Shown piece by piece: positions 61,636 through 62,515 of a stretch of DNA of 64,000 bases. Each line of letters opens with the position of its first letter. Positions within the stretch are counted from its first letter, which is position 1. The DNA is taken from the NCBI RefSeq assembly GCF_001677475.2, contig NZ_CP015229.1, one strand, 5' to 3'. Below the pieces are notes generated by a model. It was given only the letters and a program-made list of their open reading frames with translations. It was not told where the DNA came from and made no database searches. Source of the stretch: Escherichia coli. GTDB lineage: Bacteria; Pseudomonadota; Gammaproteobacteria; Enterobacterales; Enterobacteriaceae. Position numbers and translations under genes: made by a program.

Positions 61636-61712
61636 CGGATAAGGCGTTCACGCCGCATCCGGCGGTTATGCGCTGGTGCCTGATGCGACGCTGGCGCGTC
61701 TTATCAGGCCTA
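61636..61712. repeat. REP (repetitive extragenic palindrome) element(s)
   Basis: gccgcatccggcgg… and gcctgatgcgacgctggcgcgtcttatcaggcctac palindromic units. Confidence 0.7.
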
Positions 61713-61809
61713 CGAGTCTGAGAATTTTTTGCGAGCAGCTTTCCCGATGTAACACAACCTAATTGTCGACTTTTCCTTTTTCTCTTACCGTTGAGAAATA
61801 GGAGTCGCT

Positions 61810-62307
61810 ATGTCTGAATATCGTCGTTATTACATCAAGGGGGGAACATGGTTTTTCACGGTAAATTTACTGAATCGTCGAAGCCAGCTTTTGACCACCC
61901 AGTACCAGACGCTCCGTAACGCCATTGTTAAAGTTAAGCGAGCCAGACCTTTTGAAATTAACGCCTGGGTAGTTTTGCCGGAGCATATGCACTGTATCTG
62001 GACATTACCCGAAAGCGATGATGATTTTTCCTCTCGCTGGCGGGAGATTAAAAAGCAATTTACCCATGCTTGTGGATTGAAAAATATCTGGCAACCGCGT
62101 TTTTGGGAGCACGCCATCCGCAATACGAAAGATTATCGCCATCATATTGATTATATTTATATAAATCCAGTAAAGCATGGTTGGGTAAAGCAGGTGAGTG
62201 ATTGGCCATTCTCAACGTTCCATCGCGATGTCGCGCAAGGGTTATATCCCATCGATTGGGCGGGAGACGTAACGGATTTTAGTGCCGGGGAGCGTATCAT
62301 TTTATAA
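61810..62307 (+). CDS. rayT: REP-associated tyrosine transposase RayT (YafM)
   Basis: 165-aa IS200/IS605-like TnpA (HuH motif PEHMHCIW), flanked by REP elements. Confidence 0.85.
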   Translation: MSEYRRYYIKGGTWFFTVNLLNRRSQLLTTQYQTLRNAIVKVKRARPFEINAWVVLPEHMHCIWTLPESDDDFSSRWREIKKQFTHACGLKNIWQPRFWEHAIRNTKDYRHHIDYIYINPVKHGWVKQVSDWPFSTFHRDVAQGLYPIDWAGDVTDFSAGERIIL

Positions 62308-62309
62308 TT

Positions 62310-62515
62310 GTGCGCCGGTGCCGGATGCGCTTACGCTTATCCGGCCTACAAATTTGTGCCTTAACCGTAGGCCGGATAAGGCGTTCACGCCGCATCCGGC
62401 GGTTGTGCGCCGGTGCCGGATGCGCTTACGCTTATCCGGCCTACAAATTTGTGCCTTAACCGTAGGCCGGATAAGGCGTTTACGCCGCATCCGGCGGTTG
62501 TGCACCGATGCCTGA
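62310..62515. repeat. Tandemly duplicated REP/BIME cluster
   Basis: ~100-bp unit (gccggatgcgcttacgcttatccggcctacaaatttgtgccttaaccgtaggccggataaggcgtt[c/t]acgccgcatccggcggttgtgc) occurs twice in tandem. Confidence 0.85.

Follow-up and report, generated by a model that had tools for sequence, protein, structure and literature searches.

A near-identical tandem pair of REP units beside rayT in Escherichia coli: host repeat instability or transposase activity?

How do two almost identical repeats come to lie directly behind a transposase gene whose product is associated with just such repeats, and need the transposase have made them? The question is raised by the right-hand end of a 64,000-nt stretch of the Escherichia coli contig NZ_CP015229.1 (RefSeq assembly GCF_001677475.2), the whole of which we call the window. 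There rayT, the gene of a repetitive extragenic palindrome (REP)-associated tyrosine transposase, stands between yafL and lfhA. An initial annotation of this DNA had proposed that REPs flank rayT on both sides and that a downstream block of about 100 bp, repeated in tandem with a single C/T difference, suggested a recent duplication, possibly by RayT activity or replication slippage. REPs do occupy both flanks, at 61630-61713 upstream and 62308-62522 downstream, where they are arranged as bacterial interspersed mosaic elements (BIMEs), and we identify the region with near certainty as the Escherichia REPtron. The gene and the features to its right are as follows, inverted REPs being called iREPs below.

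61810-62307, + strand: rayT (tnpA_REP, yafM), 165 aa, REP-associated HUH/Y1 tyrosine transposase
62308-62402, + strand: BIME unit 1, 95 bp, with an inverted z1-like REP at 62320-62349, a y REP at 62367-62400 (loop TTCA) and GG
62403-62497, + strand: BIME unit 2, 95 bp, with an inverted z1-like REP at 62415-62444 and a y REP at 62462-62495 (loop TTTA)
62498-62522, + strand: array tail, 25 nt, TTGTGCACCGATGCCTGATGC+CTAC, the beginning of a third unit (matching the unit start at 18/21) joined to CTAC
62519-64000, - strand: 3' part of lfhA, the right neighbour, a Flag-2 FlhA homologue of the FHIPEP family (Pfam PF00771, E = 3.7e-130)

The pair of units and its age

The array starts directly after the rayT stop codon (0 bp), and each unit is composed of TTGTGCGCCGGT, an inverted 30-nt z1-like REP, a 17-nt linker (62350-62366 between the REP heads of unit 1), a 34-nt y REP and GG. 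Tandem Repeats Finder reports a repeat at 62308-62518 with a period of 95, 2.2 copies, 96% matches and a score of 394, and a separate repeat search returned a pair of 95-nt copies (62308-62402, 62403-62497) that are 99% identical. The units lie head to tail and their sole difference, C62386 versus T62481, falls in the loop of the y REP hairpin; direct comparison places a 21-nt partial third copy with three mismatches after unit 2. The alignment as a tandem duplication thus holds, as does the single C/T difference, with the correction that the unit measures 95 bp and not about 100 bp.

Where did the second unit come from? The two window units are 98.9% identical to each other (94/95), the best outside unit reaching 97.9% and 96.8%, and a T at unit position 47 is found in both of them and in none of the ten further 95-bp units examined. 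The alleles nearest to that of the window, those of SCU-171 and O55:H7, have the array [iz1-y][iz2-y], in which the second unit is 86/101 or 80/100 identical to the first. Because the window units are each other's closest relatives and share a private T47, and because the second unit is of z2 type in the closest other alleles, these comparisons support the view that unit 2 would be a copy of unit 1 made within the window's lineage, whether by duplication or by homogenisation.

Comparison of copy number across E. coli genomes reveals a variable array. Spacers were measured with a query of 300 nt from the rayT 3' end joined to 300 nt from the lfhA 3' end; 5,426 complete E. coli genomes were searched, and 38 evenly spaced genomes holding both halves formed the spacer sample. 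The two halves lie in one place in 3,398/5,426 genomes, the median for the locus being one place per genome (5,385 genomes), and yafL and lfhA flank rayT in every rayT-carrying locus fetched. Within the sample the spacer runs from 111 to 517 bp: 111 bp in two genomes, 144 in three, 185 in one, 215-232 in 24, 317-319 in five, 417 in one and 517 in two. These lengths represent about one to five units with two as the mode, which is the behaviour of a variable number tandem repeat. Other Escherichia span one unit (E. albertii) to five (Escherichia sp. MOD1-EC7003), one-unit alleles including those of AR_0077 and E. albertii, and the identity of adjacent units there ranges from 80/100 to 100/101, the latter in CUPS05. 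The 94/95 identity of the window pair would place it at the young end of this continuum.

The window's own lineage was found by exact look-up of the RayT protein, which matched 54 index blocks, and eight loci with identical RayT were compared. In all eight the spacer equals 21 + 95n bp, with n = 0, 1 or 2. Two loci (L103, L104) have n = 2 and the same array as the window, C/T difference included; L097, with 14 similar places, and L102 have n = 1, the lone unit carrying T; and in L098-L101 n = 0, only the 25-nt tail being left. L097 equals the window at all of about 4.4 kb of flanking positions, and the n = 0 loci share the window's rayT and the upstream 3 kb with 0-5 single-nucleotide polymorphisms. 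From about 100 bp into lfhA, L098-L101 carry another haplotype, variable at about 100 columns over 1,450 bp, and L100 and L102 are further mosaics; recombination breakpoints therefore lie right beside the array. Loss from a (C,T) pair to a lone T requires fewer steps than expansion plus reversion, so the (C,T) pair is probably ancestral to the one-unit (T) and zero-unit variants within the lineage. The duplication can be called recent in a relative sense, on the strength of the 94/95 identity and the private T47, with two qualifications: two units are the modal state in E. coli, and the (C,T) pair looks ancestral within the lineage.

Slippage or transposase

Based on these comparisons, we lean towards host slippage or unequal exchange as the process that made the window's duplication. 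In the course of events that we propose, rayT is a single, vertically inherited gene with a fixed place between yafL and lfhA; to its left lies one y/z2 BIME, to its right a variable array. The pair would have arisen in the window's lineage when one unit was duplicated, or when an older z2-type second unit was replaced by a copy of the first, and one substitution, in the hairpin loop, would have followed. The route would be independent of RayT: replication slippage, or unequal exchange between sister strands, at direct repeats. Either the 95-bp units or the 21-nt unit head, which the tail repeats, may have served as these repeats, and the one-unit and zero-unit variants in RayT-identical genomes would be later products of this process.

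This preference is carried by array changes in genomes where RayT is truncated or absent. O55:H7 and O157:H7 have a RayT that is identical in both and ends at a nonsense mutation, W99*, with loss of Y115; the array of O157:H7 nevertheless lacks 88 bp present in O55:H7, a deletion that fuses the z1 and z2 iREPs. The rayT-less genome KE48 has one 99-bp unit fewer than Nissle-type genomes, on flanks that are 99.8-100% identical. The breakpoints of the 88-bp, 99-bp and 190-bp (n = 2/n = 0) events lie in direct repeats of 7, 15 and 6 nt, respectively. RayT cleavage needs C|T, the bar marking the cut (PMC3333891, PMC3479197), and in these three resolvable events C|T is absent from the admissible cut positions of both strands. 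Because changes occur with W99* or without rayT, and because their breakpoints fall in direct repeats, the host route appears sufficient, and RayT is apparently not required for unit loss at this locus.

Several observations weigh against this preference. The breakpoint of an in-phase tandem duplication is unresolvable, and either mechanism could account for the step from one unit to two. Each unit has one RayT type II site (GGCC|TAC), the cut falling between 62345 and 62346 in unit 1 and between 62440 and 62441 in unit 2, exactly 95 bp apart, so that the published amplification models (PMC3333891) fit equally well. The 60 best-matching rayT-less, Nissle-like genomes all have a 274-bp array, against n = 0, 1 and 2 in the window's lineage, a contrast that might point to instability promoted by RayT. 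It is confounded by the near-clonality of these 60 genomes (KE48 comes from an evenly spread rayT-less sample) and by the Nissle units, which, as read from the sequences, are more diverged from each other than the window pair. The n = 1 state may stem from de Bruijn collapse of a two-copy array during assembly, which would deterministically leave T because T lies 16 nt from the unique tail and C is tied to the next unit. The n = 0 loci are not explicable by collapse, and their deletion is entangled with recombination with another lfhA allele.

That RayT itself made the duplication is possible, if unlikely. The enzyme would cut a C|T site in an iREP or a linker and host polymerase would extend the 3'-OH; a second cut at the equivalent site of the new strand, followed by strand transfer, would then add one BIME unit (Ton-Hoang et al. 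2012, Figure 7B/C, PMC3333891). The ingredients are at hand: rayT is intact, encodes all the catalytic residues and abuts the array (0 bp), and each unit offers a y REP with GTAG and a stem mismatch together with a CC|TAC type II site at the 95-bp spacing. In vitro, K-12 TnpA_REP cleaves and recombines BIMEs just 3' of its own gene, some products gaining a REP (PMC3333891), and the rayT-intact lineage varies between n = 0, 1 and 2 on identical upstream flanks while the 60 rayT-less Nissle-like genomes are invariant. Against this stand the changes in unit number in genomes whose RayT carries W99* or that lack rayT between yafL and lfhA, and the three resolvable breakpoints, 0/3 of which can be C|T. 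Moreover, RayT-driven BIME amplification in vivo has not been demonstrated in the literature, and a mobilome study of eight REP regions, this locus not among them, detected no circular REP DNA. The type I site of RayT is TGCC|TGAT (PMC3333891); the z1-like iREPs of the window read TGCC|GGAT, and the type I site is absent from them. The window RayT also carries R21L, at a residue that contacts the base flanking GTAG.

A second explanation dispenses with a new duplication altogether. An ancestral [z1-y][z2-y] array, as in SCU-171 and O55:H7, would have been homogenised, unit 1 overwriting unit 2 by gene conversion. It draws on the modal status of two units across E. coli and on the closest alleles, in which an [iz1-y][iz2-y] array precedes the same tail. 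BIME copies that stand in tandem at a locus are, besides, well conserved in comparison with other loci (PMC3333891), which fits concerted evolution. We nevertheless consider homogenisation improbable. It demands an exact swap of a 101-bp z2-type for a 95-bp z1-type unit across a 6-nt length gap and about 15% divergence, and the same product is reached if unit 2 is deleted and unit 1 then duplicated, through kinds of event that are observed elsewhere: the one-unit alleles of AR_0077 and E. albertii and the 100/101 adjacent units of CUPS05 are precedents.

Quite improbable, in our estimate, is a broader role for the transposase, in which the 0/1/2 polymorphism, as opposed to the invariant Nissle-like arrays, would be the sign of BIME excision and amplification that RayT still promotes in vivo; if true, the array would be a natural read-out of a RayT activity so far shown only in vitro. 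Hardly credible is a repeat falsely expanded in assembly or sequencing: short-read assemblies often go wrong at tandem repeats of about 100 bp, and those of the same lineage do differ in copy number, but assemblers collapse repeats and do not expand them, closed genomes show one to five units at the locus, and the two-copy array with its C/T difference recurs in the independent assemblies L103 and L104, so that it is no artefact of the window's assembly.

The REPtron and its slot

The identification of rayT made in the initial annotation is borne out at the protein level. RayT scores 177.7 bits against the NCBIfam equivalog NF047646 ('REP-associated tyrosine transposase', cut-off 80) and in a PDB sequence search it matches 4ER8 (E = 8e-113), the structure of TnpA_REP from E. 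coli K-12 in complex with a REP. A Pfam scan of RayT returned no family, Y1_Tnp included, at E <= 1e-3, so that the identification rests on NCBIfam and the PDB sequence search. The active site of TnpA_REP comprises Y115, H59-M60-H61, N119, H123 and E161 (Messing et al. 2012, PMC3479197), and all of these residues (H59-M60-H61, Y115, N119, H123, E161) are present in the window RayT, which is identical to the K-12 protein at 156/165 residues (about 95%), with nine differing positions. Four residues, L21 (R21L), V40, I113 and Q143, are private to the window RayT among 15 alleles compared; codon 21 (61870-61872) encodes L in the window and R or Q in the other 14. In the 4ER8 structure, R21 is among the residues that sequester the base flanking GTAG (PMC3479197). 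Acting on single-stranded DNA in vitro, the K-12 TnpA_REP recognises the REP hairpin by its 5' GTAG and stem mismatch and carries out cleavage and rejoining at C|T sites of adjacent iREPs and linkers (PMC3333891); by extrapolation, the window RayT would do likewise. A consensus promoter scan upstream of rayT gave no sigma-70 match and one terminator-like site, within chance expectation.

The left side of the REPtron comprises the following features.

60824-61633, + strand: yafL, C40/NlpC-P60 peptidase, the left neighbour (Pfam PF00877, E = 3.8e-33)
61630-61663, + strand: upstream y REP, differing from the y pattern at two positions, fold -8.3 kcal/mol, the stem interrupted by an internal 2x2 mismatch
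61678-61713, - strand: upstream z2 REP (an iREP on the + strand, CTAC at 61710-61713), 0 errors to the z2 pattern

The left BIME is a single copy in which the y REP is joined by a 14-nt linker to the inverted z2 REP. The stem foot of its y REP is weakened (AA, not GC, beside GTAG) and the AA/GC internal mismatch is kept; the z2 REP folds at -12.8 kcal/mol (z = -5.0). The y plus inverted z2 pair is found in 15/15 rayT-carrying loci compared, in agreement with the published arrangement (PMC3333891). The open reading frame of yafL is listed from TTG at 60824; RefSeq homologues measure 750 nt, by which the start would be 60884.

The REPs were annotated in this analysis, the K-12 RefSeq feature table having no REP repeat_region features for the stretch. 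The REP-head motif CTTATCMGGCCTAC has five matches in the 64-kb window against 0.03 expected from shuffles, all at the rayT locus, and the y-REP pattern has three matches against 0.00 expected; a looser, stem-based scan of the window found no REP outside the rayT locus. GTAG or CTAC is present at 6/6 REPs. Folded as single-stranded DNA, the y and z2 REPs form hairpins interrupted by a 2x2 mismatch, AA/GC, within the stem; in the z1-like REP an AA bulge occupies the matching position. A 5' GTAG and an imperfect, mismatched stem are both needed for TnpA_REP binding (PMC3333891). The C/T loop difference between the units leaves the stability of the y REP unchanged, at -12.1 kcal/mol in both. The 95-nt unit as a whole folds into one long REPIN-like hairpin (-29.8 kcal/mol on the + strand, -30.7 kcal/mol on the - strand, z = -5.3), and 0/200 shuffles fold as well.

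To which class does the locus belong? It combines a nuclease of the RayT clade, bordering REP/BIMEs, GTAG with a stem mismatch and a fixed chromosomal position, as a REPtron of RayT/TnpA_REP group 2 does, and the 95-nt unit has the make-up of a REPIN, two inverted REPs and a spacer in one hairpin of about 100 nt. The downstream units are tandem, as in BIME-2 (y plus z2, S linker, tandem), and depart from it in carrying a z1-like REP; the upstream y plus z2 pair has the BIME-2 composition, yet is a single copy. BIME-1 (z1 plus y, a long L linker, single copies) differs from what is found here, where the copies are tandem and the linkers measure 17 and 14 nt; that comparison covered composition, linker length and copy number, L linkers often carrying a site for integration host factor. 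Atypical BIMEs are chimeric combinations of y, z1, z2 and linkers, multi-copy and variable between strains (PMC3333891). Because its REPs are z1-like and y, its linkers short and its copies tandem, the right array is by its composition assigned to this atypical class. The Rfam family RF02564 (naRNA4) matches 61633-61710 (67.9 bits) and 62370-62441 (61.3 bits), above a gathering threshold of 59.5; the first match covers the left y and z2 REPs, and the second is the tail-to-tail REP pair across the junction of units 1 and 2. These matches are read as membership of the y-z REP-pair family and are no sign that a nucleoid-associated RNA is produced from this locus.

The array ends in a truncated element. 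A full-length iREP stands at the tail position in EC24 (L010) and Nissle (L015), and in the window and most strains the terminal iREP is internally deleted (TGCCTGATG-CCTAC), so the tail is best read as an internally deleted terminal iREP. The idea that the tail is a scar of RayT excision between type I and type II sites was rejected: the join of TGCC| and |TAC would read TGCCTAC, and the observed sequence is TGCCTGATGCCTAC.

On the right, lfhA is convergent with rayT and leaves the window at its end; it is full length (697 aa) in the same-lineage loci L097-L099. Its stop codon TAG (- strand, 62521-62519) is supplied by the tail CTAC (62519-62522), and the stop codon TAG of yafL (61631-61633) sits within the GTAG head (61630-61633) of the upstream y REP. 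Both neighbours of rayT, then, terminate inside REP GTAG motifs. According to a preprint, reduced translation has been reported where a REP and a stop codon are no more than about 15 nt apart. Liang, Rudd and Deutscher reportedly described this effect in 2015. Since their stop codons fall within REP heads, the expression of yafL and lfhA may be REP-modulated.

The history of the slot is in large part published. Ton-Hoang et al. 2012 (PMC3333891) described tnpA_REP between yafL and fhiA (lfhA) in two-thirds of E. coli/Shigella genomes, with one BIME on its left and a variable number on its right; in some B2 strains the gene is precisely lost and the BIMEs are kept, and in many B1 strains it is replaced by hicAB. 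We recovered these published states in Nissle (L015, rayT-less), in 1912D004 (L016, hicAB) and, as rayT with one to three units, in other strains. A fourth state between yafL and lfhA was seen in E. coli CUVET19-970 (L106, locus 597-704), which is without rayT, hicAB or REPs. Its slot holds an unrelated 97-bp spacer with a G+C-rich hairpin (CTCCCTCGCCCCAAAGGGGCGAGGGGA), and the spacer of 2014C-3075 is of equal length. In AST85 and SW070910 (L011, L014), elements of the IS3 family of insertion sequences (IS) lie just after a REP of the right array and lfhA is replaced; in SW070910 a group II intron is also inserted there. Some IS elements tend to target REP/BIME sequences, and the AST85 and SW070910 insertions fit this tendency.

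The allele that surrounds the array is itself unusual. Across yafL-rayT-lfhA (60824-64000) the window is at best 92-96% identical in DNA to any complete E. coli genome. Just upstream of yafL lies an intact dinJ-yafQ toxin-antitoxin pair (60133-60674, - strand), which is 98.7-98.9% identical to complete E. coli genomes, and the region of the type VI secretion system (T6SS) is 98.5% identical. By these identities yafL-rayT-lfhA of the window is a locally divergent allele. An origin of the window in a non-coli Escherichia was rejected on the identities of dinJ-yafQ (98.7-98.9%) and of the T6SS region (98.5%). As a separate observation, the T6SS cluster (tssB, tssC, tssJ, tssK, hcp; 30000-36000) is present in 117/5,426 complete E. 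coli genomes, the highest identity being 98.5%, and yafQ is frameshifted, interrupted or absent in several of the strains compared.

An exact 38-mer across the rayT end and array start had no match in metagenome contigs, and species-representative genome contigs searched with RayT contained no identical protein, the best reaching 96%. That best match, a RayT of the Escherichia type, lies on a 1.3-kb contig of a metagenome-assembled genome labelled 'Collinsella sp.' (L017), and a record labelled 'Pseudocitrobacter faecalis DSM 27453' (L020) has a RayT at 93% and an lfhA at 93.6% DNA identity; in both cases contamination or mislabelling is likely.

Relatives and meaning of the array

The closest described system is the REPtron of K-12 MG1655 (b0228; PMC3333891, 4ER8/PMC3479197), which occupies the same yafL-rayT-lfhA slot downstream of dinJ-yafQ and has the same plan: a left y plus inverted z2 pair, and on the right a two-unit array with a 25-nt truncated tail. 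The right units of K-12 are 101-bp [iz2-y] units with 94/101 mutual identity, whereas those of the window are 95-bp [iz1-like-y] units with 94/95. At the DNA level yafL, rayT and lfhA are 93-95% identical between the two, and the adjacent dinJ-yafQ 98.7%. In K-12 lfhA is a pseudogene, while it is intact (697 aa) in the window's same-lineage genomes; the RayT proteins differ at R21L and have identical catalytic residues.

Among repeat classes, the window array resembles the BIME-2 and atypical BIMEs of Bachellier and Gilson (via PMC3333891) in being tandemly amplified with a copy number that varies between strains. It shares the z1 plus y REP pair with BIME-1 and differs from it by short linkers and tandem copies, and its z1-like REP departs from z1 in having a y-type stem foot, CCGGAT in place of CCTGAT. 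REPIN-RAYT systems (Bertels & Rainey 2011, PMC3116915; RAREFAN) likewise pair a single-copy RAYT with REP doublets in a unit that folds as a long hairpin; REPINs are usually discussed as dispersed, rarely replicating singletons, whereas the doublets of the window form a local tandem array with slippage-like changes. As in IS200/IS605, a Y1 HUH gene lies between imperfect hairpins that are recognised in single-stranded DNA, with cleavage at short motifs. Unlike IS200/IS605, the window system is not mobile as a unit, being found at the same locus in 3,398 complete genomes; it gives no Pfam Y1_Tnp match at E <= 1e-3, and its hairpins occur on both strands and genome-wide. RayT/TnpA_REP is considered a domesticated transposase (PMC3333891). 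The REP pairs of the window also score above the threshold of Rfam RF02564, the nucleoid-associated RNA naRNA4 derived from REP325.

What does the array imply for the biology of REPtrons? The REPtron itself, its fixed position, the single left BIME, the variable right array and the replacement by hicAB or clean loss of rayT were published in 2012 (PMC3333891), and a RayT-REP co-crystal structure already exists. Our additions are small: the breakpoint evidence, the 0/1/2 series in a RayT-identical lineage, and the ending of both neighbouring genes in REP GTAG motifs. For genome comparison they carry a caution, as 95-bp arrays are likely to be collapsed in short-read assemblies. For the Escherichia REPtron they suggest that local variation in BIME copy number would be ordinary, host-mediated repeat instability. 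Because units are lost with a truncated RayT or with no rayT between yafL and lfhA, and because the resolvable breakpoints lie in short direct repeats, such variation should not be taken as a RayT footprint.

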